DNA of 64,000 bases from Mobula hypostoma (Eukaryota): positions 17,856,001 through 17,920,000 of the forward strand of contig NC_086108.1 in the NCBI RefSeq assembly GCF_963921235.1, in the 5' to 3' direction. The notes under the pieces were generated by a model, which saw only the letters and a program-made list of their open reading frames with translations, did no database searches and was not told the origin of the DNA. The position numbers and the translations under genes were made by a program. Positions within the stretch are counted from its first letter, which is position 1. Each line of letters begins with the position of its first letter. Shown here in pieces: positions 15,001 through 44,825 of this stretch.

Positions 15001-18000
15001 TACAGCAAACCTAATGGAAACACCTTAGGTTAACTTCCCACATGATTCTGAGATGTCTGAAAGTTGTTTCATGCCACTGCAGTGTAAGACAAAAAAGTTG
15101 TTTTCTCAGTGCATACAATGCTTTGACAATACAAATAGTATACATTTCAATTTTACACCAAAGTACTTACAGCAAACCTAATGGAAACACCTTAGGTTAA
15201 CTTCCCACATGATTCTGAGATGTCTGAAAGTTGTTTCATGCCACTGCAGTGTAAGACAAAAAAGTTGTTTTCTCAGTGCATACAATGCTTTGACAATACA
15301 AATAGTATACATTTCAATTTTACCCCAAAGTACTTAAAGCAAACCTAATGGAAACACCTTAGATTAACTTCCCACATGATTCTGAGATGTCTGAAAGTTG
15401 TTTCATGCCTGTGCAGTGTAAGACAAAAAAGTTGTTTTCTCAGTGCATACAAAGCTTTGACAATACAAATAGTATACATTTCAATTTTACACCAAAGTAC
15501 TTACAGCAAACCTAATGGAAACACCTTAGGTTAACTTCCCACATGATTCTGAGATGTCTGAAAGTTGTTTCATGCCACTGCAGTGTAAGACAAAAAAGTT
15601 GTTTTCTCAGTGCATACAATGCTTTGACAATACAAATAGTATACATTTCAATTTTACACCAAAGTACTTACAGCAAACCTAATGGAAACACCTTAGGTTA
15701 ACTTCCCACATGATTCTGAGATGTCTGAAAGTTGTTTCATGCCACTGCAGTGTAAGACAAAAAAGTTGTTTTCTCAGTGCATACAATGCTTTGACAATAC
15801 AAATAGTATACATTTCAATTTTACCCCAAAGTACTTACTGCAAACCTAATGGAAACACCTTAGGTTAACTTCCCACATGATTCTGAGATGTCTGAAAGTT
15901 GTTTCATGCCACTGCAGTGTAAGACAAAAAAGTTGTTTTCTCAGTGCATAGAAAGCTTTGACAATACAAATGGTATACATTTCAATTTTACAGCGAAGTA
16001 CTTACAGCAAACCTAATGGAAACACCTGAGGTTAACTTCCCACATGATTCTGAGAGGTCTGAAAGTTGTTTCATGCCTGTGCAGTGTAAGACAAAAAAGT
16101 TGTTTTCTCAGTGCATACAATGCTTTGACAATACAAATAGTATACATTTCAATTTTACACCAAAGTACTTACTGCAAACCTAATGGAAACACCTTAGGTT
16201 AACTTCCCACATGATTCTGAGATGTCTGAAAGTTGTTTCATGCCACTGCAGTGTAAGACAAAAAAGTTGTTTTCTCAGTGCATACAAAGCTTTGACAATA
16301 CAAATAGTATACATTTCAATTTTACACCAAAGTACTTACAGCAAACCTAATGGAAACACCTTAGGTTAACTTCCCACATGATTCTGAGATGTCTGAAAGT
16401 TGTTTCATGCCACTGCAGGGTAAGACAAAAAAGTTGTTTTCTTCAGTGCATACAATGCTTTGACAATACAAATAGTATACATTTCAATTTTACACCAAAG
16501 TACTTACTGCAAACCTAATGGAAACACCTTAGGTTAACTTCCCACATGATTCTGAGATGTCTGAAAGTTGTTTCATGCCACTGCAGTGTAAGACAAAAAA
16601 GTTGTTTTCTCAGTGCATACAATGCTTTGACAATACAAATAGTATACATTTCAATTTTACACCAAAGTACTTACAGCAAACCTAATGGAAACACCTTAGG
16701 TTAACTTCCCACATGATTCTGAGATGTCTGAAAGTTGTTTCATGCCACTGCAGTGTAAGACAAAAAAGTTGTTTTCTCAGTGCATACAATGCTTTGACAA
16801 TACAAATAGTATATATTTCAATTTTACCCCAAAGTACTTACTGCAAACCTAATGGAAACACCTTAGGTTAACTTCCCACATGATTCTGAGATGTCTGAAA
16901 GTTGTTTCATGCCACTGCAGTGTAAGACAAAAAAGTTGTTTTCTCAGTGCATACAAAGCTTTGACAATACAAATAGTATACATTTCAATTTTATAGCAAA
17001 GTACTTACTGCAAACCTAATGGAAACACCTTAGGTTAACTTCCCACATGATTCTGAGATGTCTGAAAGTTGTTTCATGCCACTGCAGTGTAAGACAAAAA
17101 AGTTGTTTTCTCAGTGCATACAATGCTTTGACAATACAAATAGTATACATTTCAATTTTACCCCAAAGTACTTACAGCAAACCTAATGGAAACACCTTAG
17201 GTTAACTTCCCACATGATTCTGAGATGTCTGAAAGTTGTTTCATGCCTGTGCAGTGTAAGACAAAAAAGTTGTTTTCTCAGTGCATACAATGCTTTGACA
17301 ATACAAATAGTATACATTTCAATTTTACACCAAAGTACTTACTGCAAACCTAATGGAAACACCTTAGGTTAACTTCCCACATGATTCTGAGATGTCTGAA
17401 AGTTGTTTCATGCCACTGCAGTGTAAGACAAAAAAGTTGTTTTCTCAGTGCATACAATGCTTTGACAATACAAATAGTATACATTTCAATTTTACCCCAA
17501 AGTACTTACAGCAAACCTAATGGAAACACCTTAGGTTAACTTCCCACATGATTCTGAGATGTCTGAAAGTTGTTTCATGCCACTGCAGTGTAAGACAAAA
17601 AAGTTGTTTTCTCAGTGCATACAAAGCTTTGACAATACAAATAGTATACATTTCAATTTTACCCCAAAGTACTTACAGTAAACCTAATGGAAACAGCTCA
17701 GGTTAACTTCCCACATGATTCTGAGATGTCTGAAAGTTGTTTCATGCCAGTGCAGTGTAAGACAAAAAAGTTGTTTTCTCAGTGCATACAATGCTTTGAC
17801 AATACAAATAGTATACATTTCAATTTTACACCAAAGTACTTACTACTAACCTAATGGAAACACCTTAGGTTAACTTCCCACATGGTTCTGAGATGTCTGA
17901 AAGTTGTTTCATGCCAGTGCAGTGTAAGACAAAAAAGTTGTTTTCTCAGTGCATACAATGCTTTGACAATACAACTAGTATGCATTTCAATTTTACACCA

Positions 18001-21000
18001 AAGTACTTACTGCAAACCTAATGGAAACACCTTAGGTTAACTTCCCACATGATTCTGAGATGTCTGAAAGTTGTTTCATGCCAGTGCAGTGTAAGACAAA
18101 AAAGTTGTTTTCTCAGTGCATACAATGCTTTGACAATACAACTAGTATACTTTTCAATTTTACACCAAAGCACTTACAGCAAACCTAATGGAAACACCTT
18201 AGGTTAACTTCCCACATGATTCTGAGATGTCTGAAAGTTGTTTCATGCCACTGCAGTGTAAGACAAAAAAGTTGTTTTCTCAGTGCATACAATGCTTTGA
18301 CAATACAAGTAGTATACATTTCAATTTTACACCAAAGTACTTACAGCAAACCTAATGGAAACACCTTAGGTTAACTTCCCACATGATTCTGAGATGTCTG
18401 AAAGTTGTTTCATGCCACTGCAGTGTAAGACAAAAAAGTTGTTTTCTCAGTGCATACAATGCTTTGACAATACAAATAGTATACATTTCAATTTTACCCC
18501 AAAGTACTTACAGCAAACCTAATGGAAACACCTTAGGTTAACTTCCCACATGATTCTGAGATGTCTGAAAGTTGTTTCATGCCACTGCAGTGTAAGACAA
18601 AAAAGTTGTTTTCTCAGTGCATACAATGCTTTGACAATACAAATAGTATACATTTCAATTTTACACCAAAGTACTTACAGCAAACCTAATGGAAACACCT
18701 TAGGTTAACTTCCCACATGATTCTGAGATGTCTGAAAGTTGTTTCATGCCACTGCAGTGTAAGACAAAAAAGTTGTTTTCTCAGTGCATACAATGCTTTG
18801 ACAATACAAATAGTATACATTTCAATTTTACACAAAGTACTTACAGCAAACCTAATGGAAACACCTTAGGTTAACTTCCCACATGATTCTGAGATGTCTG
18901 AAAGTTGTTTCATGCCACTGCAGTGTAAGACAAAAAAGTTGTTTTCTCAGTGCATACAATGCTTTGACAATACAAATAGTATACATTTCAATTTTACACC
19001 AAAGTACTTACTGCAAACCTAATGGAAACACCTTAGGTTAACTTCCCACATGATTCTGAGATGTCTGAAAGTTGTTTCATGCCACTGCAGTGTAAGACAA
19101 AAAAGTTGTTTTCTCAGTGCATACAATGCTTTGACAATACAAATAGTATACATTTCAATTTTACCCCAAAGTACTTACAGCAAACCTAATGGAAACACCT
19201 TAGGTTAACTTCCCACATGATTCTGAGATGTCTGAAAGTTGTTTCATGCCACTGCAGTGTAAGACAAAAAAGTTGTTTTCTCAGTGCATACAATGCTTTG
19301 ACAATACAACTAGTATACATATCAATTTTACACCAAAGTACTTACAGCAAACCTAATGGAAACACCTTAGGTTAACTTCCCACATGATTCTGAGATGTCT
19401 GAAAGTTGTTTCATGCCACTGCAGTGTAAGACAAAAAAGTTGTTTTCTCAGTGCATACAATGCTTTGACAATACAAGTAGTATACATTTCAATTTTACAC
19501 CAAAGTACTTACTGCAAACCTAATGGAAACACCTTAGGTTAACTTCCCACATGATTCTGAGATGTCTGAAAGTTGTTTCATGCCACTGCAGTGTAAGACA
19601 AAAAAGTTGTTTTCTCAGTGCATACAAAGCTTTGACAATACAAATAGTATACATTTCAATTTTACCCAAAGTACTTACAGCAAACCTAATGGAAACACCT
19701 TAGGTTAACTTCCCACATGATTCTGAGATGTCTGAAAGTTGTTTCATGCCACTGCAGTGTAAGACAAAAAAGTTGTTTTCTCAGTGCATACAATGCTTTG
19801 ACAATACAAATAGTATACATTTCAATTTTACCCCAAAGTACTTACTGCAAACCTAATGGAAACACCTTAGGTTAACTTCCCACATGATTCTGAGATGTCT
19901 GAAAGTTGTTTCATGCCACTGCAGTGTAAGACAAAAAAGTTGTTTTCTCAGTGCATACAATGCTTTGACAATACAAATAGTATACATTTCAATTTTACAC
20001 CAAAGTACTTACTGCAAACCTAATGGAAACACCTTAGGTTAACTTCCCACATGATTCTGAGATGTCTGAAAGTTGTTTCATGCCACTGCAGTGTAAGACA
20101 AAAAAGTTGTTTTCTCAGTGCATACAATGCTTTGACAATACAAATAGTATACATATCAATTTTACACCAAAGAACTTACAGCAAACCTAATGGAAACACC
20201 TTAGGTTAACTTCCCACATGATTCTGAGATGTCTGAAAGTTGTTTCATGCCACTGCAGTGTAAGACAAAAAAGTTGTTTTCTCAGTGCATACAATGCTTT
20301 GACAATACAAATAGTATACATTTCAATTTTACAGCAAAGTACTTACTGCAAACCTAATGGAAACACCTTAGGTTAACTTCCCACATGATTCTGAGATGTC
20401 TGAAAGTTGTTTCATGCCACTGCAGTGTAAGACAAAAAAGTTGTTTTCTCAGTGCATACAATGCTTTGACAATACAAATAGTATATATTTCAATTTTGCC
20501 CCAAAGTACTTACTGCAAACCTAATGGAAACACCTTAGGTTAACTTCCCACATGATTCTGAGATGTCTGAAAGTTGTTTCATGACACTGCAGTGTAAGAC
20601 AAAAAAAGGTTGTTTTCTCAGTGCATACAATGCTTTGACAATACAAATAGTATACATTTCAATTTCACCGCAAAGTACTTACAGCAAACCTAATGGAAAC
20701 ACCTCAGGTTAACTTCCCACATGATTCTGAGTTGTCTGAAAGTTGTTTCATGCCACTGCAGGGTAAGACAAAAAAGTTGTTTTTTTCAGTGCATACAATG
20801 CTTTGGAAATACAAATAGTATACATTTCAATTTTACAGCAAAGTACTTACTGCAAACCTAATGGAAACACCTTAGGTTAACTTCCCACATGATTCTGAGA
20901 TGTCTGAAAGTTGTTTCATGCCTGTGCAGTGTAAGACAAAAAAGTTGTTTTCTCAGTGCATACAATGCTTTGACAATACAAATAGTATACATTTCAATTT

Positions 21001-24000
21001 TACCCCAAAGTACTTACAGCAAACCTAATGGAAACACCTTAGGTTAACTTCCCACATGATTCTGAGATGTCTGAAAGTTGTTTCATGCCACTGCAGTGTA
21101 AGACAAAAAAGTTGTTTTCTCAGTGCATAGAAAGCTTTGACAATACAAATGGTATACATTTCAATTTTACACCAAAGTACTTACAGCAAACCTAATGGAA
21201 ACACCTTAGGTTAACTTCCCACATGATTCTGAGATGTCTGAAAGTTGTTTCATGCCACTGCAGTGTAAGACAAAAAAGTTGTTTTCTCAGTGCATACAAA
21301 GCTTTGACAATACAAATAGTATACATTTCAATTTTACACCAAAGTACTTACTGCAAACCTAATGGAAACACCTTAGGTTAACTTCCCACATGATTCTGAG
21401 ATGTCTGAAAGTTGTTTCATGCCACTGCAGTGTAAGACAAAAAAGTTGTTTTCTCAGTGCATACAATGCTTTGACAATACAAATAGTATACATTTCAATT
21501 TTACCCCAAAGTACTTACAGCAAACCTAATGGAAACACCTTAGGTTAACTTCCCACATGATTCTGAGATGTCTGAAAGTTGTTTCATGCCTGTGCAGTGT
21601 AAGACAAAAAAGTTGTTTTCTCAGTGCATACAATGCTTTGACAATACAAATAGTATACATTTCAATTTTACACCAAAGTACTTACTGCAAACCTAATGGA
21701 AACACCTTAGGTTAACTTCCCACATGATTCTGAGATGTCTGAAAGTTGTTTCATGCCTGTGCAGTGTAAGACAAAAAAGTTGTTTTCTCAGTGCATACAA
21801 TGCTTTGACAATACAAATAGTATACATTTCAATTTTACACCAAAGTACTTACAGCAAACCTAATGGAAACACCTTAGGTTAACTTCCCACATGATTCTGA
21901 GATGTCTGAAAGTTGTTTCATGCCACTGCAGTGTAAGACAAAAAAGTTGTTTTCTCAGTGCATACAATGCTTTGACAATACAAGTAGTATACATTTCAAT
22001 TTTACACCAAAGTACTTACTGCAAACCTAATGGAAACACCTTAGGTTAACTTCCCACATGATTCTGAGATGTCTGAAAGTTGTTTCATGCCACTGCAGTG
22101 TAAGACAAAAAAGTTGTTTTCTCAGTGCATAGAATGCTTTGACAATACAAATAGTATACATTTCAATTTTACACCAAAGTACTTACAGCAAACCTAATGG
22201 AAACACCTTAGGTTAACTTCCCACATGATTCTGAGATGTCTGAAAGTTGTTTCATGCCTGTGCAGTGTAAGACAAAAAAGTTGTTTTCTCAGTGCATACA
22301 ATGCTTTGACAATACAAGTAGTATACATTTCAATTTTACACCAAAGTACTTACTGCAAACCTAATGGAAACACCTTAGGTTAACTTCCCACATGATTCTG
22401 AGATGTCTGAAAGTTGTTTCATGCCACTGCAGTGTAAGACAAAAAAGTTGTTTTCTCAGTGCATACAATGCTTTGACAATACAAATAGTATATATTTCAA
22501 TTTTACCCCAAAGTACTTACAGCAAACCTAATGGAAACACCTTAGGTTAACTTCCCACATGATTCTGAGATGTCTGAAAGTTGTTTCATGCCACTGCAGT
22601 GTAAGACAAAAAAGTTGTTTTCTCAGTGCATACAATGCTTTGACAATACAAATAGTATACATTTCAATTTTACACCAAAGTACTTACTGCAAACCTAATG
22701 GAAACACCTTAGGTTAACTTCCCACATGATTCTGAGATGTCTGAAAGTTGTTTCATGCCACTGCAGTGTAAGACAAAAAAGTTGTTTTCTCAGTGCATAC
22801 AATGCTTTGACAATACAAATGGTATACATTTCAATTTTACAGCGAAGTACTTACAGCAAACCTAATGGAAACACCTGAGGTTAACTTCCCACATGATTCT
22901 GAGATGTCTGAAAGTTGTTTCATGCCTGTGCAGTGTAAGACAAAAAAGTTGTTTTCTCAGTGCATACAATGCTTTGACAATACAAATAGTATACATTTCA
23001 ATTTTACACCAAAGTACTTACAGCAAACCTAATGGAAACACCTTAGGTTAACTTCCCACATGATTCTGAGATGTCTGAAAGTTGTTTCATGCCACTGCAG
23101 TGTAAGACAAAAAAGTTGTTTTCTCAGTGCATACAATGCTTTGACAATACAAATAGTATACATTTCAATTTTACCCCAAAGTACTTACTGCAAACCTAAT
23201 GGAAACACCTTAGGTTAACTTCCCACATGATTCTGAGATGTCTGAATGTTGTTTCATGCCACTGCAGTGTAAGACAAAAAAGTTGTTTTCTCAGTGCATA
23301 CAATGCTTTAACAATACAAATAGAATACATTTCAATTTTACACCAAAGTACTTACAGCAAACCTAATGGAAACACCTTAGGTTAACTTCCCACATGATTC
23401 TGAGATGTCTGAAAGTTGTTTCATGCCTGTGCAGTGTAAGACAAAAAAGTTGTTTTCTCAGTGCATACAATGCTTTGACAATACAAGTAGTATACATTTC
23501 AATTTTACACCAAAGTACTTACTGCAAACCTAATGGAAACACCTTAGGTTAACTTCCCACATGATTCTGAGATGTCTGAAAGTTGTTTCATGCCACTGCA
23601 GTGTAAGACAAAAAAGTTGTTTTCTCAGTGCATACAATGCTTTGACAATACAAATAGTATATATTTCAATTTTACCCCAAAGTACTTACAGCAAACCTAA
23701 TGGAAACACCTTATGTTAACTTCCCACATGATTCTGAGATGTCTGAAAGTTGTTTCATGCCACTGCAGTGTAAGACAAAAAAGTTGTTTTCTCAGTGCAT
23801 ACAATGCTTTGACAATACAAATAGTATACATTTCAATTTTACACCAAAGTACTTACTGCAAACCTAATGGAAACACCTTAGGTTAACTTCCCACATGATT
23901 CTGAGATGTCTGAAAGTTGTTTCATGCCACTGCAGTGTAAGACAAAAAAGTTGTTTTCTCAGTGCATACAATGCTTTGACAATACAAGTGGTATACATTT

Positions 24001-25436
24001 CAATTTTACACCAAAGTACTTACAGCAAACCTAATGGAAACACCTTAGGTTAACTTCCCACATGATTCTGAGATGTCTGAAAGTTGTTTCATGCCACTGC
24101 AGTGTAAGACAAAAAAGTTGTTTTCTCAGTGCATACAATGCTTTGACAATACAAATAGTATATATTTCAATTTTACACCAAAGTACTTACTGCAAACCTA
24201 ATGGAAACACCTTAGGTTAACTTCCCACATGATTCTGAGATGTCTGAAAGTTGTTTCATGCCACTGCAGTGTAAGACAAAAAAGTTGTTTTCTCAGTGCA
24301 TACAAAGCTTTGACAATACAAATAGTATACATTTCAATTTTACCCCAAAGTACTTACAGCAAACCTAATGGAAACACCTTAGGTTAACTTCCCACATGAT
24401 TCTGAGATGTCTGAAAGTTGTTTCATGCCACTGCAGTGTAAGACAAAAAAGTTGTTTTCTCAGTGCATACAATGCTTTGACAATACAAGTAGTATACATT
24501 TCAATTTTACACCAAAGTACTTACTGCAAACCTAATGGAAACACCTTAGGTTAACTTCCCACATGATTCTGAGATGTCTGAAAGTTGTTTCATGCCTGTG
24601 CAGTGTAAGACAAAAAAGTTGTTTTCTCAGTGCATACAATGCTTTGACAATACAAATAGTATACATTTCAATTTTACACCAAAGTACTTACAGCAAACCT
24701 AATGGAAACACCTTAGGTTAACTTCCCACATGATTCTGAGATGTCTGAAAGTTGTTTCATGCCTGTGCAGTGGAAGACAAAAAAGTTGTTTTCTCAGTGC
24801 ATACAGTGCTTTGACAATAGAAGTAGTATACATTTCAATTTTACACCAAAGTACTTACTGCAAACCTAATGGAAACACCTTAGGTTAACTTCCCACATGA
24901 TTCTGAGATGTCTGAAAGTTGTTTCATGCCACTGCAGTGTAAGACAAAAAAGTTGTTTTCTCAGTGCATACAATGCTTTGACAATACAAATAGTATATAT
25001 TTCAATTTTACCCCAAAGTACTTACAGTAAACCTAATGGAAACAGCTCAGGTTAACTTCCCACATGATTCTGAGATGTCTGAAAGTTGTTTCATGATTGT
25101 GCAGTGTAAGACAAAAATGTTGTTTTCTCACTGCATACAATGCTTTGAAAATACAACTAGTATACATTTCAATTTTACACCAAAGTACTTACTGCAAACC
25201 TAATGGAAACACCTTAGGTTAACTTCCCACATGATTCTGAGATGTCTGAAAGTTGTTTCATGCCACTGCAGTGTAAGACAAAAAAGTTGTTTTCTCAGTG
25301 CATACAAAACTTTGACAATACAACTAGTATACATTTCAATTTTACCCCAAAGTACTTTCAGCAAACGTAATGGAAACACCTTATGTTAACTTCCCAGATG
25401 ATTCTGAGTTGTCTGAAAGTTGTTTCATGCCACTGC
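1..25436. repeat. Homogeneous 167-bp tandem satellite array, ~152 monomers in window, continuing beyond the left edge; putative centromeric satellite
   Basis: TTAGGTTAACTTCCCACATG at 1 recurs at 168 and at 1671 (10 x 167). Monomers differ by only a few SNPs or 1-bp indels. AT-rich, no CpG in the consensus, one HpaI/PstI/ScaI site per typical unit. The last unit switches to the divergent type at CACTGC|TCATCAAG (~25436). Centromeric role is inferred. Confidence 0.97.
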
Positions 25437-28400
25437 TCATCAAGAGAAAAAAATTGATTTGTCAGTGCATACAGTGCAGTGGCATTGAAAGAAGTTTACA
25501 TTTCAATTTTACTCAAAGGTACTGACTGCAAAGCTGATGGAAACATTTTAAGATTACTCCCCACATCATTCTGAGTTGTTCAGGACCTGTTACATCACTC
25601 AGCTCCTCAAGATAAAAAAGTTGATTTCTCAGTGCATTCAGTGCTTTGGCTTTGAAAGAAGTATGTATTTCAATTTTACTCAATAGTACTGAATGCAAAC
25701 CTCATGGAAACATCTTAACATAACTCCCCACATGAGTCTGAGTTGTTCAGAACCTGTTACATCACTCATCTCCTGAAGATAAAGAAGTTCTTTTCTCAGT
25801 GCATACAGTGCTTTGGCATTAAAAGATGTATGTATATCAAGTTTACTCAAAGGTACTGACTGAAACCCTTATGGAAACATATTGATGTAAATCCCCACAT
25901 GATTCTGAGTTGTCTGGGAGCTATTATATCACTTTGCTATTCAAGATAAAAAAGTTGATTTCTCAGTGCATACTGTGCTTTGGCATTGAAAGAACTATGT
26001 ATTTCAATTTTACTCACTAGTACTGAATGCAAACCTCATGGAAACATCTTAATATAACTCCCCACATGATTCTGAGATGTTCAGGACCTGTAACATCACT
26101 CAGCTCCTCAATATAAAAAAGTAGATTTCTCAGTGCCTACAGTGTAGTGGCATTGAAAGAAGTATACATTTCGATTTTACTCAAAAGTATTGAGTGCAAA
26201 GCTGATGGAAACATCTTAACATAACTCCCCACATGATTCAGAGTTGGTCAGGACCAGTTACATCATTCAGCTCCTCAAGGTAAACAAGTTGTTTTCTCAG
26301 TGCATGCAGTGCTTTGGCATTAAAAGAAATAGGTATTACAATTTTACTCAAAGGTTCTGACTGAAAACCTTATGGAAACATCTTAATATAATTCTGCACA
26401 TGATTCTGAGTTGTCTGGGAGCTGTTATATCACTTTGCTATTCAGGATAAAAAAAGTTGATTTCGCAGTGCATACAGTGCTTTGTCAATAAGTAGTATAC
26501 ATTTCAAATTTACACTAAAGTACTTACGGCAAACCTAATGGAAACACCTGAGACTAACTTCCCACATGAATATGAATAGTTTGAAAGTTGTTTTATGCCT
26601 CTGCTCATCAAGAGAGAAAAGTTGATTTCTCAGTGCATACAGGGCAGTGGCATTGAAAGAAGTATACATTTCAATTTTACTCAAAGGTACTGGCTGAAAA
26701 CCTGATGGAAATATCTTAACATAACTCCCCACATGATTCTGAGTTGTTCAGCACCTGTTACATCAGTCAGCTCCTCAAGATAAAAAAGTTGATTTGTCAG
26801 TGCATACAGTGCTTTGGAATTAAAAGAAGTATGTATATCAAGTTTACTCAAAGGTACTGACTGAAACCCTTATGGAAACATCTTAACATAACTCCCCACA
26901 TGATTCTGAGTTGTCTGGGAGCTATTATATCACTTTGCTATTCAAGATAAAAAAAGTTGATTTCTCAGTGCATACAGTGCTTTGGCATTGAAATAACTAT
27001 GTACTTCAATTTTACTCACCAGTACTGAATGCAAACCTGATGGAAACATCTTAATATAACTCCCCACATGATTCTGAGATGATCAGGACCTGTAACATCA
27101 CTCAGCTCCTCAATATAAAAAAGTTGATTTCTCAGTGCATACAGTGTAGTGGCATTGAAAGAAGTATACATTTCAATTTTACTCAAAAGTACTGACTGCA
27201 AAGCTGATGGAAACATCTTAACATAACTCCCCACATGATTCAGAGTTGTTCAGGACCAGTTACATCATTCAGCTCCTCAAGGTAAACAAGCTGATTTCTC
27301 AGTGCATGCAGTGCTTTGGCATTAAAAGAAGTAGGTATTACAATTTTACTCAAAGGTACTGACTGAAAACCTTATGGAAACATCTTAATATAAATCTGCA
27401 CATGATTCTGAGTTGACTGGGAGCTGTTATATGACTTTGCTATTCAGGATAAAAAAGTTTATTTCTCAGTGCATTCCGTGCTTTGTCAATAAGTTTTATA
27501 CATTTCAATTTTACACTGAAGTATTTATGGCAAACCTAATGGAAACACCTTAGTTTAACGTCCCACATGATTATGAGTAGTTTGAAAGTTGTTTCATGAC
27601 TCTGCTCATGAAGAGAAAAAAGTTGATTTCTCAGTGCATACAGTGCATTGGCATTAAAAGAACTATGTATTTCAATTTTACTCGAAGGTACTGACTGCAA
27701 CCCTTATGGAAACATCTTAATATAAATCCCCACATGATTTTGAGTTGTCTGGGAGCTGTTATATCACTTTGCAATTCAGGATAAAAAAGGTTGATTTCTC
27801 AGTGCATACAGTGCTTTGCCATTGAAAGAACTATGTATTTCATTTTTACTCACTAGTACTGAATGCAAACCTCATGGAAACATCTTAATATAACTAGCCA
27901 CATGATTCTGAGATGTTCAGGACCTGTAACATCACTCAGCTCCTCAAGATAAAAAAGTTGATTTCTCAGTGCATACAGTGCTTTGGCATTAAAAGAAGTA
28001 TCTATTTCAATTGTACTCAATAGTACTGAATGCAAACCTCATGGAAACATCTTAATATAACTCCCCACATGATACTGAGATTTTCAGGACCTGTTACTTC
28101 ACTCAGCTCCTCAAGATAAAAAAGTTGATTTCTCAGTACATACAGTGCAGTGGCATTGAACGAAGTATACGTTTCAATTTTACTCAAAGGTACTGACTGC
28201 AAACCTTATGGAAACATCTTAACATAACTCCCCACATGTTTCTGAGTTGTTCAGGACCTGTTACATCACTCAGCTCCTCAAGGTAAAAAAGTTGATTTCT
28301 CAGTGCATAAAGTGCATTGGCATTAAAAGAAGTATGTATTTCAATTTTACTCAAAGGTACTGACTGCAAACCTTATGGAAACATCTTAATATAAATCCCC

Positions 28401-30190
28401 ACATGATTCAGAGTTGTCTGGGAGCTGTTATATCACTTTGCTATTCAGGATAAAAAAGTTGTTTTCTCAGTGCATACAGTGCTTTTTCAATAAGTAGTCT
28501 ACATTTCAATTTTACACTAAAGTACTTAAGGCAAACCTAATGGAAACACCTTAGGTTAACGTCCCACATGATTATGAGTGGTTTGAAGGTTGTTTCATGC
28601 CTCTGCTCATAAAGAGAAAAAAGTTGATTTCTCAGTGCGTACAGTGCAGTAGTATTGAAAGAAGTATACATTTCAATTTTACTCCAAGGTACTGACTGAA
28701 AACCTGATGGAAACATCTTAACATAACTCCCCACATGATTCTGAGATGTTCAGGACCTGTTACATCACTCAGCTTCTCAAGATAAAAAAGTTGATTTCTC
28801 AGTGCATACAGTGCAGTGGAATTGAAAGAAGTATACATTTCAATTTTACTCCAAGGTACTGACTGCAAAACTGATGGAAACATCTTAACATAACTCCCCA
28901 CATGATTGTGAGATGTTCAAGACCTGTTACATCACTCAGCTCCTCAAGATAAAAAAGTTGATTTCTCAGTGCATACAGTGCAGTGGAATTGAAAGAAGTA
29001 AGTGCATTGGCATTAATAGAAGTATGTATTTCAATTTTACTCAAAGGTACTGACTGCAAACCTTATGGAAACATCTTAATATAAATCCCCACATGATTCT
29101 GAGTTGTCTAGGAGCTGTTATATCACTTTGTTATTTAAGATGAAAATGTTGATTTCTCAGTGCATACTGTGCATTGGCATTGAAAGAAGTATGTATTTCA
29201 ATTTTTCTCAATACTACTGAATGCAAACCTGATGGACAAATCTTAATATTACTCCCCACATGATTCTGAGATGTTCAGGACCTGTTACATCACTCAGCTC
29301 CTCAAGATAAAAAAGTTGATTTCTCAGTGCATACAGTGCTTTGGCATTAAAAGAAGTAGGTATATCAAGTTTACTCAAAGGTACTGACTGAAAACCTTAT
29401 GGAAACATCTTAATATAACTCCCCACATGATTCTGAGTTGTCTGGGAGCTGTTATATCACTTTGCTATTCAAGATGAAAAAGTTGATTTCTCACTGCATA
29501 CAGTGCTTTGGCTTTAATAGAAGTATGTATTTCAATTTTACTCAGTAGTACTGACTGCAAACCTCATGGAAACATCTTAATATAACTCCCCACATGATTC
29601 TGAGATGTTCAGGACCTGTAACATCACTCAGCTCCTCAAGATAAAAATGTTGATTTCTCAGTGCATACAGTGCAGTGGCATTGAAAGAAGTATACATTTC
29701 AATTTTACTCAAAGGTACTGACTGCAAAGCTGATGGAAACATTTTAACATAACTCCCCACATCATTCTGAGTTGGTCAGGACCTGTTACATCACTCAGCT
29801 CCTCAAGATAAAAAAGTTGATTTCTCAGTGCATAAAGTGCATTGGCATTAAAAGAAGTATGTATTTCAATTTTACTCAAAGGTACTGACTGCAAACCTTA
29901 TGGAAACATCTTAATATAAATCCCCACATGATTTTGAGTTGTCTGGGAGCTGTTATATCACTTTGCTATTCAGGATAAAAAAGTTAATTTCTCAGTGCAT
30001 ACAGTGCATTGGCATTGAAAGAAGTATGTATTTCAATTTTACTCAACAGTACTGAATGCAAACCTCATGGAAACATCTTAATATAACTCACCACATGATT
30101 CTGAGATGTTCAGGACCTGTTACATCACTCAGCTCCTCAAGAGAAAAAAGTTGATTTCTCAGTACATACAGTGCAGTGGCATTGAAAGAA
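25437..30190. repeat. Diverged layer 2 of the same 167-bp satellite, with three monomer subtypes and a partial ~1002-bp (6-mer) higher-order period
   Basis: Same register and shared motifs (TGGAAACA, CCCACATGATTCTGAG, TTTCTCAGTGCATACA). Subtype A has CAGGACCTGTTACATCACTCAGCTCC, B has GTCTGGGAGCTGTTATATCACTTTGC, and C resembles the young monomer (~26550, ~27550, ~28551). Confidence 0.93.
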
Positions 30191-33100
30191 GTATAAGAAG
30201 CATAGATTTCAATTTTGCTCAAAAGTACTGAGCGGAAACCTCATAGAAACATCTGAACTTAACTCCCCAAGTGACTCTGAGCTGTTTGGGACCTGTTTTA
30301 TCACTGAGGTATTCAAGATAATAAAGTTGATTTCTCAGTGCATACAGTACTTTGACATTAAAAGAAGTATTCATTGCAATTTTACTCACAAGTTTTTTCT
30401 GCAAATTTTATGGAAACATCTGAACTTAACTCACCATATGATTCTGAGCTGTTTGAGACCTGTTTTATCACTGAGCTGTTCAAGATAAAAAAGTTGATTT
30501 CTCAGGGCAAACATTGCTTTGAAATTAAAAGAAGTATACATTGCAATCTTACTCACAGTTACTTGCTGCAAACCCAATGGAAACGTCTGAACTTAAACCC
30601 CTGCATGATTCTGAGTTGTTCGAGTCCTGTTTTATCACTGAGCTGTTAAACATAAAAAAAGTTGATTTCTCAGTGCATACAGTGCTTTGACATTAAAAAA
30701 AAAGTATACATTGCAATTTTACTCACTGCTACTTGCTGCAAACCTGATGGAAACATCTGAACTGAACTCCCCATATTATTCTGAATTGTTTTTGACCTGT
30801 TATATCACTGAGCTCTTCAAGACAAAAAAGTTGATTTTTCAGGCCATACAGTGCTTTGACATTAAAAGAAGTATACATTTCATCTTTACTCAAAAGTACT
30901 GACTGCAAACCTCATAGAAACATCTGAACTTAACTCCTGAAATGATTCTGAGCTTATTGAGGTCTGCTTTATCACTGAGGTATTCAAGATAAAAAAGTTG
31001 ATTTATCAGGGCAAACAGTGCTTTGGAATTAAAGGGAGTATACATTGCAATTTTACTCACAGCTACTTGCTGCAAACCCAATGGAAACATCTGAACTTAA
31101 CTCCCTGCATGATTCTGAGTTGTTCGAGTCCTGTTTTATCACTGAGCTCTTCAAGATAAAAAAATTGGTCTCTCAGTGCATACAACTGCTCTGACATTAT
31201 AAGAAGCATAGATTTCAATTTTGCTCAAAAGTACTCAGTGGAAACCTCATGGAAACATCTGAACTTAACTCCAAAAATGATTCTGAGCTGTTTGGGACCT
31301 GTTTTATCACTTAGGTATTCAAGGTAATAAAGTTGTTTTTGACCTGTTATATCACTGAGCTCTTCAAGATAGAAAAGTTGATTTCTCAGTGCATGCAGTG
31401 CTTTGACATTAAAAGAAGTATTCATTGCAATTTTACTCATAAGTTCTTTCTGCAAATCTGATGGAAACATCTGAACTTAACTCCCCATATGATTCTGAGC
31501 TGTTTAAGACCTGTTTTATCACTGAGGTCTTGAAGATAAAGAAGTTGATTTCTCAGTGCATACAGTGCTTTGACATTATAAGAAGTATAGATTTCAATTT
31601 TTCTCAAAAGTACTGAGTGCAAACCTGATGGAAAGATCTGAAGGTAACTCCCCATATGATTCTGAGTTGTTTTTGACCTGTTTTATCCTGAGCTCTTCAA
31701 GATAAAAACGTTGATCTCTCAGGGCATACAGTGCTTTGACGTTAAAAGAAGTATACATTTCAACTTTCTCAAAAGTACTGAGTGCAAACCTGATGGAAAC
31801 ATCTGAACTTTACTCCCCATATGATTCTGAGTTGTTTTTGACCTGTTTTATCACTGAGCTCTTCAAGACAAAAAAGTTTATTTTTCAGGCCATACAGTGC
31901 TTAGTCATTAAAAGAAGTATACATTTCAACTTTACTCAAAAGTACTGACTGCAAACCTCAGAGAAACATCTGAACTTAACTCCCCAAGTGACTCTGAGCT
32001 GTTTGAGGCCTGCTTTATCACTGAGGTATTCAAGATAAAAAAGTTGATTTCTCAGGGCAAACAGTGCTTTGACATTAAAAGAAGTATTCATTGCAATTTT
32101 ACTCACAAGTTTTTTCTGCAAATCTGATGGAAACATCTGAACTTAACTCCCCATATGATTCTGAGCTGTTTGAGACCTGTTTTATCACTGAGGTCTTGAA
32201 GATAAAGAAGTTGATTTCTCAGTGCATACAGTGCTTTGACATTAAAAGAAGTATACTTTTCAACTTTACTCAAAAGTACTGACTGTAAACCTCATGAAAA
32301 CATCTGAACATAACTCCCCAAATGATTCTGAGTTGTTTGAGACCTGTTTTATCACTGATTCTTCAGAATAAAAAAAGTTGATTTCTCTGTGCATACAGTG
32401 CCTTGACAATAAAAGAAGTATACACTTCAATTCTACTCAAAAGTACTAACTACAAACCTCATGGAAACATCTAAACTTAACTCCCTGCATGATTCTGATT
32501 TGTTCGAGTCCTGTTTCATCACTGAGCTGTTCAAGATAAAAAAGTTTATTTCTCAGTGCATACTCTGCTTTTACATTATAAGAAGTATAGATTTCAATTT
32601 TGCTCAACAGTACTGACTGCAAACCTCATGGAAACATCTGAACTTATCTCCCCAAATGATTCTGATTTGTTTGAGATCTGTTTTATCACTGAGCTCTTCA
32701 AGATAAGAAAGTTGATATCTCGGGGCATTCAGTGGTTTGACACTAAAAGAAGTATACATTGCAATTTTACTCACAGCTGCTTGCTGCAAACCTGATGGAA
32801 ACATTTGAACTGAACCCCCCCCCCATATAATTCTGAGTTGTTTTTGACCTGTTATATCACTGAGCTGTTCAAGATAGAAAAGTTGATTTCGCAGTGCATG
32901 CAGTGCTTTGACATTAAAAGAAGTATACATTTCAACTTTACTCAAATGTACTGACCGTAAACCTCATGGAAACATCTGAACTTATTTCCCTACATGATTC
33001 TGAGTTGTTTGAGTCCTGTTTTATCACTGAGTTCTTCAAGATAAAAAAAAGTTGGTTTCTCGGTGCATACACTGCTTTGACATTATAAGAAGTATAGATT

Positions 33101-33330
33101 TCAATTTTACTCAAAAGTACTGAGTGCAAACCTGATGGAAACATCTGAACTTAACTCCCCATGTGATTCTGAGTTGTTTTTTTTACCTGTTTTATTACCG
33201 AGCCGCTCAAGATAAAAAAGTTGATTTCTCAGTGCATACAGTATATAGTCATTATAAGAAGTATATATTTCAATTTTACTCTAAACTACTGAGTGCAATC
33301 TGATGGAAACATCGGAACTTAACTCTCCAT
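30191..33330. repeat. Diverged layer 3 of the 167-bp satellite, the outermost ~19 monomers
   Basis: Diagnostic GAAACATCTGAACTTAACTCC and CCTGTTTTATCACTGAG replace the layer-2 motifs from ~30200. The array ends mid-monomer at ~33330 against an L1 fragment. Confidence 0.92.
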
Positions 33331-33710
33331 AATTAAAATGGATATTACTAGAAGGAACAAAATTATTTAAGTCAAAAAATCTATGAATGTGAAAGCAAAT
33401 TCTTAATTTATGTTTAATAATAGGATTAATATCTTGTCTACGAATCTTAGCAAACAAAAAGAGAAGAGGAACTCCCAGTAAAGAGGCCAAAGAGAACCCC
33501 TTAACTGAGTTTTCCTCCAAATCCAACCAATGAGGACATTCATGTGTGTCTGAGTAATGAATGCAAAAAGTAATATATCGAATTTTAATTTCCCAATAAT
33601 ACATTCTAAAATTTGGCAAAGCCATACCACCACCCTTTTTTAATTTCTGTAATAAAGGTTTACTTAATCTATGATTTTTGTTATTGCAAATATAAGATAT
33701 GATTATAGAA
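33331..33710 (-). mobile_element. L1/Tx1-clade LINE ORF2 internal fragment (post-RT region)
   Basis: Translates as LQKLKKGGGMALPNFRMYYW..., homologous to LQKAKKNGGLALSNFRFYYW in the L1 at 41230-41760. Confidence 0.85.
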
Positions 33711-35596
33711 TCTTTCTTGAATAAGGGAACAACATCAGCAACCCTCCAATCCTCTGGAACCTCTCCTGTTCCTATTGATGATGCAAAGATCATGCCAGAG
33801 GCTCAGCAATCTCCTCCCTCACTTCCCACAGTAGCCTGGGGTATTTCTCGTCTGATCCCGGTGACTTATCCAACTTGAAGCTTCAGCACATCCTCTTTTT
33901 AACGTCTATATGTTCAAGCTTTTCAGTCCACTGTATGTCATCCCTACAATTGCTAAGATCCTTTTCCACAGTGAATACTGAAGCAAAGTATTCATTAAGT
34001 ATCTCTCCTATCTTCTCCAGTTCCATACACACTTTTCCACTGTCATACTTGATTGGTCCTATTTTCTTATGGCTTATCATCTTGGTCTTCACATACTTGT
34101 AGAATGCCTTGGGGCTTTCCTTAATCCTGCTCGCCAAGTCCTTCTCATGGCCTATTCTGGCTCTGCTAACTTCATGCTTAAACTCCTTCCTGCTAGCCTT
34201 CTTATTTTCTAGATCTCTATCATTACCTACTTTTTTGAACCTTTCATAAGCTTTTCTGTTCTTGACTAGTTTTTCAACAGCTTTTGTCCACCATGGTTCC
34301 TGTACCCTACCATCCTTTTCCTGTCTCATTGGAACCTACCTATGCAGAACGCCATTCATATATCCCTGAACATCTGCCAAATTCATGCTGTATATGTCCT
34401 TGGGAACATCTGCTCCCAATTTATACCTCCAAGTCCCTGCCTGATAGCTTCATATTTCCCCTTACTCCAATTAAACATTTTCTTAACTTGTCTGTGTCAT
34501 GGTCCGGTCTGTAAAGTCCACATTCCGGTTCACGGTCCGGTCCATCGACCCTTGCTCCAGGTTTTCCTGTCTACCCTGTTTCTGTTCTTGTTGAACACTA
34601 ATTGAGGCAGCTGATTCTCGTTGGGGCTGGCTGCATAAATACCTCCAGAGACCAGGGCACGGCTGCTGGATTGTTCTTGTCCTTACTCCTTGTATCCCTT
34701 CCCCGGCTTTCTGTTTCCTCACCTGAAGTTCTTGTCTCACCTTGCATTGCCTGAAGCCTTGCCTTGTCTTGCCGGTAACTCTCGCCTCGCCTGAAGTCTT
34801 GTCTTGGAGCCACCCTGTACCTAGCTCCCTTCCTGTTCCTTGCCTCTGTCAGGTAAGCCAGGCCGTCTTGCCATTACTTATGGTTGGTTCTGTCCCTTCC
34901 TGTCCCTTGCCTCCGTTGGGTAAGTCAGGCCGTATTGCCGTTACCCTGCAGTTGGTTCTGTCCCTTCCTGTCCCTTGCCTCCATCAGGTGGAGATCTGTG
35001 CCCTGCCCAGGTGATCCGCGCCCTGCCCAGGAGTACCACGCCCTGCCCAGGAGGAGTTTCAAGACCCCAAGCCTCGAGCTTCGCCCCAAGCCAAGCTTCA
35101 AGATCCCAAGCCTCAAACCTCTAGTCTCAAGCCTCGCCTCAAGTTTGAAGACTCCTGCCTCATCCTGCCTGCCAGCCAAGTCACGTCCTTGCCTAGTTCT
35201 GGTGGTCCGAGCCAGAGGCAAGACCCAGGTCTCTGGCTCAGAGTCCAAGCCCGGGCTCCTAGCTCTCTTGTCCAGTCCTGTTCTGGGTTCCCAGTTTTTC
35301 TGTCCATATCCTTGCCCTCGCCCTGTATCCTAGTCCTGCCCCTAGTACTTCAGTGTCTGTGTCTTGCACTTGGGTCCATTCCCAGCCACCCCTGTCTGAC
35401 AGTCTGCTCCTATCCCTTTCCAATGCTATGGTAAAGGAGAGGGAATTGTGATCACTATCTCCAAAATGCTCTCCCACTGAGAGACCTGACGCCTGACTAG
35501 GTTCATCTCCCAATACCAGATCAAGTACAACCTCTTCTCTTATAGGCTTAGCTACATATTGTGTCAGGAAACTTTCCTGAACACATCTAACAAATT
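33711..35596 (-). mobile_element. CR1-clade LINE fragment (endonuclease end to RT start), interrupted by a solo LTR
   Basis: Peptides GEHFGDSDHNSLSF, PKAFYKYVK...KIGPIK and GEVPEDWRVADVVPLFKK match the CR1 at 54-56 kb. The reading IALERDRSR|QVKK is continuous across the LTR insertion. Confidence 0.9.
34495..35401 (+). mobile_element. Solo LTR, 907 bp, probably Gypsy-type
   Basis: Termini TGTCA...TGACA; 5-bp TSD GTCTG at 34490-34494 and 35402-35406; TATA-like GCATAAAT near 34633; terminal TGCACTTGGGTCC motif; internal ~68-bp tandem repeats at ~34825-34990. Confidence 0.88.
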
Positions 35597-38360
35597 ACTC
35601 TGACCGTATCTCGCTCTCACTGCAACCAGCTCACTGTGGCTCTAACCCTCTCTCACTGTAAGCAAATCATTGAACAGCAACCAATTCATACTCTCTGAAC
35701 CCAACTCACTCCACTGTAAACAACACACTCTGACTTTAACCAACCCACTCTAACTCAAAACAACTTTGTGTAGCAGTTATTGTTAGAGTGAGCTCATGCA
35801 ATCAGAGCAAGTTGGTTTGTTAGAATGAGTTCATTACAACAGTGTGAGTTAGTTACAGTGAGAGGAGGCTGATTATTTTCAGCGTGAGCTGGTTATTGTC
35901 ATATGAGCGGTTTACAATCTGAGTGATTTGATTACAGTCAGAGTTAGTTGCTTGGAGTAGAATCAGTTGGTTCCAGTTAGATTGTGTTGGTTCCCTTTGG
36001 TGTGAAGTGACTGTAGTCCAGTGATGTTGCTGCATTTAGAGTGAATTGGTTAGAGAAGAGAGAGTTGGATATAGAAGAATATATTGGTTACAGTAGAATG
36101 AGCTGGTTACAGTCAGAGTGAATTGATTAGAGTTAGAATGATCTGTTTACCTTTGGAGTCAGCTACGTGAGTTGCTTACAATTAGAGTGATTTGTTTTCA
36201 GTCAGAGTGTGTTGGTTAAAATCAGATTGAGTGTTTTCTGTGGAGTGAGTTGGTTACAGTAGAGTAAGTTAGTCAGAGTCAAATTACAGTCAGACTGATT
36301 TGGTTCCAGTTAAAGTGAGTTGGATCCCATTGGAGTGAGCTGGTTAGCATGGAATGACTTGGTTAACCTCAAGTTAGACGTTTACAGTCTGAGTGAGTTG
36401 TTTAGAATAGAATTACTTGGTTCAAGTTAGTTGCTGTTAAAGTAAGTTGATACAATTAGAGCAAATTGATTTGTTAGAGTGAGTTTGTTACAACAGTGTT
36501 ACAGTGAGAGTGAGTTGATTAGTTTCAGAGTGAGTTGGATACTGTCATGTGAGCTGTTTACAGTCGAAAGAGTTGGTTACAGTAGAGTGAGTTGATCACA
36601 GGCAAATTATAGTCAGGCTGATTTGATTCTAGTTAAAGTGAGTTGGATTCTGTTACTGTGAGTTTGTTACACTGAAGTGAGTTGGTTGCCATCAGAGTCA
36701 GTGGCTAATGTTACAGTCAGTTGGATACAGTTGGAGTAAGTTTTTTTGAGTTAGAGTGGGTTGGTGAAAGTCAGAATGAGATTTTCACAGTGGAGTGAGT
36801 TAGTGTTAAGGATCTGGCCTGAACACTGGGTCGAAGGGCCTCTGCTGGTAGCTCTGGATCACGCAGTCTTTAATTTCTGTTTTCTTTCACCTGACCATGG
36901 AGGTTCTGGCCCAGCCCCTTTCCTTTTTGGACTTCCTCCAATTACCTACTTGTCTCCTCATTTGCTAATTTTCTAATTTTCACTCATTACCCTGTCCATT
37001 TAAACCCTGCCTTGACTAGCATTCTCTGCCAGTTCTGACCTGTGTCATTCTAGCCTGTCATTGCGACTCCTGCCAACCGAATTTGCCTGATTCTGTGTTT
37101 TGGATTTTGCCCGTTTGTGGACCTGATTTTTGCCTGTGCACTCTGGATTGTCTGCCCTCGCCTGACTGCCTTTCCTGGTAAGACCTCTGCCTGCCATTTC
37201 GGATTCGTGCCTGCCTTCTGTTTTTGAAAGACTGTTGCCTTTGCGCTCCCTAATAAATCCTGGTGAAAAAGTATTCAGTGGTCTGCACTTGAGTCCCATC
37301 GAAACCAGACAGTTAGTTACAATGAGTGTGAGTTAGTTACAGTGAGAGAGAGTTGATTATTTTCAGAGTGAGCTGGTTACTGTCATGTGTGCTGTTTACA
37401 GTCTGAGTGAATTGGTTCCAGTCAGAGTGAGTTTCTTAGAGTAGAATCAGTTGGTTCCAGTTAGAGTGAGTTGTTTCGAGTTGGAGCGATTTGGTTTCAG
37501 TTCAGCGAATTCATTGCAGTTAGGGTGAGTAGAGAGGATTGTTCCTGCAGACTATGTTCATTACAGTAGAATGAGTTAGTTGCAGTCAGAGTGAGCTGGG
37601 TATAGTTAGAGTGAGTTGTTTGTTTCAGAGTAAACTGAGTGAATTGCTTATAATTAAAGAGATTTGTTTTGAGTCAGAGTGTGTTGGTTAAAGTCAGAGT
37701 GAGTTGTTTACAGTGGAGTGAGTTGGTTACAGTAGAGTGAGTTGTTCACACTCAAATTAAAGTCAGACTGATTTGTTTCTAGTTAAAGTGAGTTGGATTC
37801 CATGGGTGAGTTGGTTACAGTCAAAGTCAGCTGATTATTGTCAGAGTCAGTGGCTACTGTTACAGTGAGTTGGTTACAGTTCAAGTGAGTTGTTTTGAGT
37901 CTGAGTGGTTTGGTTAAAGTCAGAGTGAGGTATTTGCAATGGAGTGAGTTGGTTACAGTGAGTGTCTGTTGGTTATTCTGCAATGATTTGCTTATAGTGA
38001 GAGGGAGATTTAGATTCGGAGTGAGTTGCTTACAGTGAGAGTGTGTTACAGTCAGAGTAATTTGTTTACATGAGACAGAGTTGGTTACAACTGAATGAGT
38101 GAGTTGCAGTCAGAGTGAGTTTTTATAGTAGTGTGTTGTTGCAATTAGAGTGAATTTACTGTCAGAGTTATTTGGTTACATTTGAGTGAGTTGTTTAGAG
38201 CTAGTGTGAGTTGTTTTGAGTCAGAGTGGGCTAGGTAAAGTCACAGTGAGTTGTTTATGGTCAGGTGAGATGGTTACAGTCAGAGTGGGATGGTAACTGA
38301 GGTGAGTGAGGTGATTCCGGTCAGTCAGTTGGTTACAGTGAGAGTGAATTATGGTCAGAA
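35597..38360. repeat. Degenerate ~20-bp minisatellite (consensus approx. TTACAGTCAGAGTGAGTTGG) with larger repeated blocks; first ~170 bp inverted
   Basis: Recurring GAGTGAGTTGGTTACAGT motifs. Block 35851-35980 resembles 37331-37465 and partly 36497-36570. C-rich orientation at 35597-35765. Confidence 0.85.
36804..37311 (+). mobile_element. Solo LTR, 508 bp, probably Gypsy-type, inserted in the minisatellite
   Basis: TGT...ACA termini; 5-bp TSD GTTAG at 36799-36803 and 37312-37316; TTTAAA TATA-like box near 37000; AATAAA at 37252; terminal TCTGCACTTGAGTCC motif like the first LTR. Confidence 0.87.
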
Positions 38361-43300: not shown

Positions 43301-43934
43301 CCATCTGATAAAACTAGAAGTCTCCTCTAACATATTCTCTTTAAAAAGTGTAATTTGTCTCTCTATAAACTTTAAAAGATCTTTATCAGATAACAAGGTT
43401 AGATTAAAATGCCAAAACCTGTTTGTTTGAAGAAGGCCAGGGAGATTTAAAGATAAGAGCACAGGAGCATGATCTGAGACAACAATCTCTTTATATTTAC
43501 AGGATCGAGCTAATTGAATCATTTGGCTATCAATAAAAAAGTAACCAATCCTGAAATATATATGATGAACATGAGAGAAAAACAAATACTCCCTGTCTAC
43601 TGGATGAGAAAATGCACCGAACATCAATAATACCACATTTCATTAGAGAAGATTTAATAAACACAGCTGATTTATTTCGTATCACTAGCTTAGAAGATGA
43701 ACAATCTAAAGCTGGATCTAAACAACAATTAAAATCTCCTCCCATCACCAATGTGTACAAATTCAGATCTGGCAAAAATGAAAAAAAAATGCTCAAAGAA
43801 GCCTGGGTCATCTATATTCAGAGCATACACATTGGCATATACCATTAATTTGTTATCTAGCTTTCTTGATACTTTAACAAAATGCCCATTAGTACCAGAA
43901 ATTACTTTATGTTGAACAAAGGAAACTTTATTAT
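40388..43934 (-). pseudogene. L1 ORF2p remnant (partial APE endonuclease, RT, C-terminal Cys-rich region)
   Basis: Motifs GGDFNC, SDHAPV, GPDGFSGEFY, YRPISLLN, QAGFIKNR, SLDTEKAFDRVEW, FCADNLL, FTYLGI and CDKC..EASLIHMFWTCP across several frames. Confidence 0.9.
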
Positions 43935-44701
43935 CTATAAGGATCGAAACTTCTCTGGCTTTGGCCTGAAACGAAGAATGGAAATGAGATTCTCTCCATT
44001 GATTAAAAAGGTGTGAATTGTCACATTTACATACATGAGTTTCTTGAAGAAAATCTTAGCACGTTCTTCCATAACTTCCGATGAGAAATCTTCAACAATA
44101 TGAATCATCTGACCCTTGTACTCAATCATACCTTTCGAACGGGATTCACGAACCAAAAGGTCCTTTATTTGAAATTCATGAAAGCATATAATGACCGATC
44201 TTGGTCTTGATTCTGACGTCGATCTATAACTAGGTGATCTGTGAACACGATTAATCAAAGGTAAGTACTGTATAATATCAGGGAATAATTCCATCAGAAG
44301 GTTTGCAAAGAATTCCTTAGGATTACTCCTTCCTTTAACTCTTTAAGTCCCAAGAGTTGCAAGTTGTTTCTCCTACTTCTATTTTCCAAATCAATAATCT
44401 TCTGTCTCAGTTTTCCGTTGGACTTGGACTGTTTTTCATACAGCTTTTGCAGATCATCAGTTTTCTTATCCAGTATCGTTATAATCCCTTCATGCTCTTT
44501 TATCCTCTTATCGTGCTCAATTAAAGTTTCTTGAATAACATCCAGTTTTATACCTATTTTTTTACCTTCAAAGCTGATTTGTTGTGAATCGGCCGACGCT
44601 TCTTTTCTGAACTGATGAAACTCCTCGGTAAGCTTTTGCGAATCTGTAGAAAGCTTTTGAAGCAAGCCCATAATAGATTCCAAAGCTGCTTTGGTAGCCA
44701 T
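43935..44701 (-). pseudogene. L1 ORF1p remnant (coiled coil plus RRM), frameshifted
   Basis: MATKAALESI...IDLENRSRRNNL.LLG, followed in another frame by INRVHRS...RPRSVIICFH...IHIVEDFSSEV. Confidence 0.85.
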
Positions 44702-44825
44702 AATAAGATAATAACACGTGTAACAGTAATATTTCAAAAGGTTGGAAACAAAAAAGGAAATAAACTAGGAGCACCGGGAAAGACCTATTACTCCATCAGC
44801 GACCAGAAAGCAAGTCAGTAACTTT

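Follow-up and report, generated by a model that had tools for sequence, protein, structure and literature searches.

Three relatives of a young 167-bp satellite array in an older multimeric layer at the edge of a layered array of Mobula hypostoma

In primate alpha satellite, a succession of monomeric, dimeric and again monomeric layers has been described and explained by interchromosomal transfer (Shepelev et al. 2009, PMC2729386), and within the dimeric layer the green monomer is reported to be the sole source of every later layer (Miga and Alexandrov 2021, PMC9549924). In these accounts, monomeric dead layers succeed a dimeric one, the olive-green layer (H1H2 / OaNa) (PMC2729386, PMC9549924). 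In T2T-CHM13, new repeats expand and push older ones aside, and the seed can come from inside or outside the array (10.1101/2021.07.12.452052). In satellite 1a of Meloidogyne chitwoodi and M. fallax, a variant found only in higher-order repeats (HORs), 1aH, is 81% identical to the variant 1aM of monomeric arrays, junctions lie in conserved boxes, and both directions have been proposed, monomers entering HORs and HORs serving as templates for monomers (PMC3694981). A further frame is given by the satellite DNA library hypothesis (PMC8822648). In the present study, a window of 64,000 bp from Mobula hypostoma (contig NC_086108.1, positions 17,856,001 to 17,920,000) was analysed, the left 33.3 kb of which is filled by a 167-bp satellite. 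Three units of an older layer, here termed C, turned out to be the closest kin of the young homogeneous array at the left end of the window, here termed Y, and the direction of this relationship, capture of C by the older layer or birth of Y from it, is discussed. No description of the 167-bp family was found in the literature searched, the coverage of which excluded most subscription journals and bioRxiv supplements.

Cutting in a single phase and subsequent alignment yielded 198 full units between 79 and 33225, all read on the forward strand. Y is a monomeric array (1–25291) that extends past the left end of the window; its units 0 to 150 (n = 151, 79–25291) comprise 85 distinct units with a mean pairwise identity of 97.4% and differ from their own consensus by a mean of 2.5 changes. 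No higher-order period was detected in Y (mean identity 0.9725–0.9767 at lags 1–44, without a peak), and no run of three or more units sharing rare variants occurred at lags 1–99. A hybrid junction unit (unit 151, 25292–25458), recognised by site painting, is followed by layer 2 (25459–30155), an irregular multimer of 28 units that was delimited by identity matrix and tree and consists of the subtypes A1 (n = 8), A2 (n = 8), B (n = 9) and C (n = 3), with a mean pairwise identity of 86.2% among A1, A2 and B. Layer 3 (30156–33329; 18 full units, to 33225) holds the oldest and most divergent units, which have a mean pairwise identity of 83.5% and contain no C. Divergence from the own consensus rises with distance from Y, from the mean of 2.5 in Y to a mean of about 8 in layer 2 and 12–24 differences per unit in layer 3, and the window holds the edge of a layered satellite array with ordered layers.

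No transposon insertions were seen in the old layers, which span only about 8 kb; the units are contiguous from 79 to 33225 and the longest measures 213 bp. Two lengthened units, 28963–29153 (191 bp) and 31170–31382 (213 bp), contain internal duplications of 24 bp and about 45 bp, respectively, and are signs of out-of-register exchange. Rfam gave no match at the gathering threshold within 24000–34000. The repeat is set apart from alpha satellite (approximately 171 bp), without alignment to it, by its length of 167 bp and by the lack of any match to the CENP-B box pattern on either strand of 1–33330. A centromeric role of the array is plausible from unit length and layering.

In the rise of divergence away from a homogeneous array and in the monomeric-multimeric-monomeric succession, the locus resembles the alpha-satellite layers of primates, for which stray 'runaway' monomers in the wrong layer are likewise reported (PMC2729386, PMC9549924). 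As far as these accounts describe them, the alpha-satellite layers differ from the present ones in extent, with hundreds of kb there and a few kb here, and in the share of the related unit, which is every second unit there and 3 of 28 here. The layered expansion in CHM13 is similar as well, and seeding from inside or outside is the same question at the present locus; symmetry, CENP-A position and chromosome spread were demonstrated for CHM13, whereas layering is known here from one array edge (10.1101/2021.07.12.452052).

The preliminary description of this DNA had reported three segments of layer 2 with diagnostic states of the young array that are absent from their neighbours, and this observation was confirmed by site counts. 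Three units of 165 bp, C1 (26462–26626), C2 (27463–27627) and C3 (28464–28628), the starts of which are spaced by 1001 bp, carry the Y state at 11, 10 and 12 of 23 Y-diagnostic sites, respectively, compared to 0–2 sites in each of the remaining 43 old units. The Y-like signal in these units is real and far beyond chance, and the segments as originally placed coincide with the Y-like part of the C units. The mean identity to Y units is 83.0% for C, 73.3% for the other 25 units of layer 2 and 73.7% for layer 3. In numbers of differences, C1 is separated from the Y consensus by 28, from A1, A2 and B by 40–41 and from layer 3 by 32; the corresponding values are 29, 40–42 and 36 for C2 and 24, 38–41 and 34 for C3, and the three copies diverge from each other by 8.5–11.5%. 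Four motifs had been quoted as diagnostic for the young array, and two of them are indeed Y motifs: allowing at most one mismatch, the third was found in 143 and the fourth in 150 of the 151 Y units, both in all three C units and in none of the 43 other old units. The first and the second are spellings specific to C. The former has no match in Y even at two mismatches, because it spans a 2-bp deletion present only in C, and the latter (beginning with TACAC(T), with the T included) has no exact match in Y, 94 units of which have C at the T position.

Maximum-likelihood trees were calculated with a sample of 15 of the 151 Y units, unit 197 being omitted from the main tree and the junction unit from the placement tests, for which the approximately unbiased (AU) test was used. 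Y and C were joined with a support of 100/100 in phase 0 and of 100/99 in the rotated phases 100 and 145, whereas a grouping of C with A/B was rejected (p-AU 4.6e-6). A clade of A/B without C received 95/97 on columns 24–143 of the alignment and 90/81 on all columns. In the best trees the C units formed a clade of their own (97/84 to 99/86) with Y as its sister. The expectation that Y would group with the three segments in a monomer phylogeny of several phasings was thus borne out with regard to kinship, the position of Y in the best trees being that of a sister and not a nested one; nor are the C units equidistant between Y and the subtypes A and B, as Y and C are mutually closest. The consensus of C is 34–36 changes away from those of A1, A2 and B, which are 11–20 changes apart from each other and 17–19 from layer 3, and the view of C as a home-grown subtype of layer 2 is not supported.

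The consensuses of Y and C differ in 21 columns. States common to all three C units and not present in Y are 24T, the 2-bp deletion at columns 29–30, 57T, 69G, 113A, 148A and 155G, and at columns 24, 29, 113 and 148 it is Y that has the layer-3 state. Due to these fixed states of C and the layer-3 states of Y, Y is not simply amplified present-day C, and judged from the sequences C is most likely the sister of Y and not its parent in the present form. An identity scan in sliding windows, which had been proposed in order to locate the crossover that created the young unit, gave a divided result: in columns 145–169 C has an identity of 0.72 to Y compared to 0.92 to A1, A2 and layer 3, and all 12 derived sites shared by Y and C fall in columns 24–143 with 6 of the 8 Y-only sites outside (Fisher p 7e-4, with boundaries chosen post hoc), while a boundary-free run test of this clustering gave p 0.096 and columns 146–150 may represent one event. 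C may be a mosaic with flanks derived from its host layer, as suggested by the windows and the post hoc test, but the run test weighs against this. A class of 40 loose-end records from one of the other organisms introduced below (organism B) has the states 147C, 148A, 149T and 150C of C, which also weighs against the mosaic reading. Columns 156–165 and 167–15 form a block conserved across the subtypes, within which C has the old-type states 16G and 166A; early branching of C also accounts for these.

Within layer 2, a block of the order A2-A1-B-C occurs in three copies (25960–26626, 26962–27627 and 27963–28628), detected by lag identity over 25960–28628, and because this block recurs with two variable units between its copies, the C units are spaced by 1001 bp. 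The first pair of A2-A1-B at lag 1002 has an identity of 0.95–0.96 and the second pair of blocks at lag 1001 of 0.91–0.92, and C1 and C2 are identical to 0.885. The spacer units show 32–35 changes between the second and the third repeat and are unlike in subtype; counted from the junction, the C units follow at distances of 7, 6 and 6 units. A regular HOR, with a fixed order of n-mers and high identity between copies, is not present in layer 2, and a regular HOR as ancestor is not supported, only the four-unit block being recurrent. The last 9 units of layer 2 and all 18 units of layer 3 are without C. With 9, 10 and 7 differences from their own consensus, the C units are as diverged as their layer-2 neighbours (mean 7.9, p 0.41), and therefore C was already in layer 2 at the last duplication of this layer. 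Between C1 and C2, 19 of 165 sites are different, compared to 23 of 501 in their three upstream neighbours (Fisher p 0.003), an approximately 2.5-fold excess, whereas the 14 differences between C2 and C3 match those of their neighbours (13–15). Rare units possibly escape the conversion that homogenises common ones.

The junction unit (25292–25458) has Y states up to column 141 and the C-specific states 148A and 155G in the part from column 146; it is also old-type at columns 146–150 and 166 and has one old-type state at column 118. Its crossover is placed most simply at 25433–25436 by site painting. Since Y states are followed by a C-specific tail, which had been overlooked previously, it is within a fourth C unit that Y gives way to the old layers. 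Of seven alleles tested in Y, two of old type, 33G (p 3.5e-4) and 141T (p 7e-5), become more frequent toward the old edge, and 141T is always paired with 142G (13/13), a state absent from C. The clustering of 33G and 141T-142G in the stretch next to the old layers (16774–25291) hints at a sub-layer inside Y. Additionally, columns 140–149 of the Y consensus form a perfect 10-bp palindrome that is absent from the old layers and from C; it is completed by four of the clustered tail changes of Y and disrupted by the minor haplotype 141T-142G (13 of 151 units). A template-switch origin of the palindrome was considered and gained no further support, because the 141T-142G haplotype has the same tail.

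A search with 25292–30155 listed 16 runs from four organisms (A to D), 13 of them with part of the stretch, and one run per organism (4 of 16) was aligned to 28425–28670 at 80% likeness. The core of C is covered by contigs of all four organisms. In organism A the loose ends are Y-like. The aligned depth of organisms B and D resembles Y at columns 16, 24, 57, 69 and 155 (24A 94% and 79%, 57C 88% and 78%, 155C 78% and 92%, respectively) and the C units at columns 113–122, with 119A at 91% and 92%, the 113C of Y at 6% and 15% and its 122C at 1% and 2%. In organism C, nearly all of the depth has 113C, and 119A and 122C stand at 56% and 52%, respectively. The high depth of C-like states at columns 113–122 in organisms B and D means that a variant abundant elsewhere has some of the states that are fixed in C. 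The state 69G reaches at most 1–3% in all four runs and is thus private to the C units. Contigs crossing the site of the deletion amount to 0.8–6.6% of the neighbouring depth, a value not readable as copy number. Apparent tandem joints between C units were seen in 1–2 contigs each, lie within the conserved block and were not used as evidence. As judged from these contigs, the lineage formed by Y and C, hereafter family II, is shared among organisms and diversified. In line with the library hypothesis, related organisms appear to share the family and to have amplified different variants of it, here read from summed contig depth in one run each.

We assign a probability of roughly 0.55 to the reading that the C units go back to an older variant of the Y family, from which one relic unit was captured at the interface and duplicated together with its neighbours. 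In relative rate tests against layer 3, the C lineage has 21 changes compared to 9 in A1, 10 in A2 and 11 in B (p 0.028, 0.048 and 0.077), and Y has 24–28 compared to 10–12 (p 0.011–0.016), so the Y/C lineage is estimated to have changed at approximately twice the rate of its neighbours. Units of one multimer would be expected to drift at one rate, and the doubled rate of Y and C thus speaks for capture. So do the joining of Y with C to the exclusion of A/B, the A/B clade formed without C, the distance of C from the A1, A2 and B consensuses and the C-like states at high depth in organisms B and D. Family II would accordingly be one lineage that underwent concerted evolution apart from A/B and layer 3 and is abundant in several organisms. 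A unit of one of its earlier variants would have recombined into layer 2 during the duplication phase of this layer, probably through the block common to all subtypes (columns 156–15). Unequal exchange would then have copied it together with its neighbours, as A2-A1-B-C, on three or more occasions, while family II went on changing and later expanded as Y. The boundary between Y and the old layers would be a crossover within a C unit, the type most similar to Y among the partners available. We infer the capture, its route and the order of events, like the centromeric role, from established satellite dynamics (unequal exchange and conversion). A precedent for capture is provided by 1aH and 1aM in Meloidogyne, the identity of which (81%) is close to the 83% between C and Y; the HORs there are regular and abundant and join satellites of identities as low as 32%, unlike the short irregular multimer of one family (approximately 73% or more) found here (PMC3694981).

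Several results weigh against capture. The rate test assumes layer 3 as outgroup, uses consensuses and is non-significant in one of the three tests of C. Nesting of Y inside C was not clearly rejected (p 0.09–0.13 on all columns and 0.049–0.082 on columns 24–143), and neither B (p 0.33) nor A1+A2 (p 0.25) was rejected as the group with which family II would nest (nested placements 0.10–0.34); the AU tests treat gaps, including the 2-bp deletion, as missing data. C keeps the old state at 8 sites derived in Y, from which follows an early branching of C that birth from the multimer also predicts, and the raw distances of C to Y and to the layer-3 consensus differ only modestly in favour of Y (75–96% of column bootstraps). 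With p 0.30 among the 28 layer-2 units and 0.064 among the 46 old units, the nearness of C to the interface does not reach significance. The organism frequencies are summed contig depths and not copy numbers, are biased to the reference and come from one run each among the rows listed, and no tandem array of C-type units was seen. These observations leave room for the tentative alternative, which we hold possible, that the ancestor of C was a unit of an A/B/C multimer, freed by unequal crossover between two such units as a monomer whose amplification into family II preceded the split of the four organisms, with the surviving C copies changing afterwards. The residence of C in layer 2 at its last copying, the junction within a C unit and the enrichment of 33G and 141T toward the old edge fit this course of events as well, and the takeover by the green monomer provides a precedent in alpha satellite (PMC9549924). 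The birth of Y would demand the twofold rate in one unit of a multimer, and it meets an irregular layer 2 with C missing from its last 9 units and from layer 3. Moreover, 119A and apparently also 113A are common to C and the variant of organisms B and D; with 113C and 119T in both Y and the old layers, a reversion in Y would be needed, and the constant pairing of 141T with 142G is foreign to C. The earlier proposal that Y arose from one unit of a multimeric ancestor therefore stands as far as Y and C are closest kin and C is resident in layer 2, and is weakened by the states found only in C and by the irregularity of the multimer. Its further claim of a reversal of the usual direction is not new, as a succession from dimer to monomer is already published for alpha satellite (PMC9549924, PMC2729386), where interchromosomal transfer and amplification are invoked for such successions (PMC2729386, PMC9549924).

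The remaining explanations are considerably weaker than these two. Separate insertions, with a heterogeneous old pool of family II as the source of repeated entries of C into layer 2, would explain the excess divergence of C1 and C2 over their upstream neighbours and are unlikely, because each of the three C units stands behind A2-A1-B and has both the deletion and 69G, a state rare in the runs; C2 and C3 do not show the excess, and later conversion among the many A/B units would account for that of C1 and C2. Recent gene conversion from the present Y into layer 2 is very improbable. Although no C unit is more than 3.4 kb away from Y and the derived sites shared with Y are confined to columns 24–143, as in the post hoc test, the run test of this clustering is non-significant and the C units have 24–29 changes from the Y consensus compared to the mean of 2.5 in Y units, besides their divergence from each other. 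The derived single-nucleotide variants of the young array, by which conversion was to be recognised, were looked for in C, and none of the common ones (14G, 17A, 33C, 41T, 55C, 56G, 142G) is present. An artefact of assembly or consensus, with young reads mixed into the old layer, can hardly be credited: while no listed contig crosses the stretch as a whole, mixing of reads would yield Y alleles, and the C copies instead have 7–10 differences from the C consensus and share non-Y states.

To the right of the array, an element of 907 bp at 34495–35401, probably a solo long terminal repeat, is bounded by TG and CA with a target-site duplication of 5 bp and lies within an apparent fragment of a long interspersed nuclear element (LINE). 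A degenerate minisatellite of 19–20 bp (approximately 60% matches) occupies 35600–38350, the part up to about 35770 being apparently on the strand opposite to the rest. The reading frames beyond the array are presumably those of broken LINEs; by resemblance we take the broken frames at 40673–44764 (reverse strand) for an L1/Tx1-type element, those at 54210–56495 (forward strand) for a CR1-type element and those at 59674–60798 (forward strand) for a Penelope-type reverse transcriptase.

The process of layering and turnover is already known, and the feature described here is a further example of it. The locus offers a compact and well-resolved record of satellite turnover, with three layers, units that are probably relics of a former variant of the family that prevailed, and a junction inside such a unit. 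On a doubtful reading, the C units would mark the place, still preserved, where family II was born, as a monomer from a short-lived A/B/C multimer that is now dominant in at least four related organisms, each amplifying a different variant. If true, the birthplace reading would make the locus a non-primate vertebrate parallel of the takeover by the green monomer, with the parent multimer and the junction still in place. The locus thereby bears on the seeding of new arrays from inside or outside the array, outside primates.

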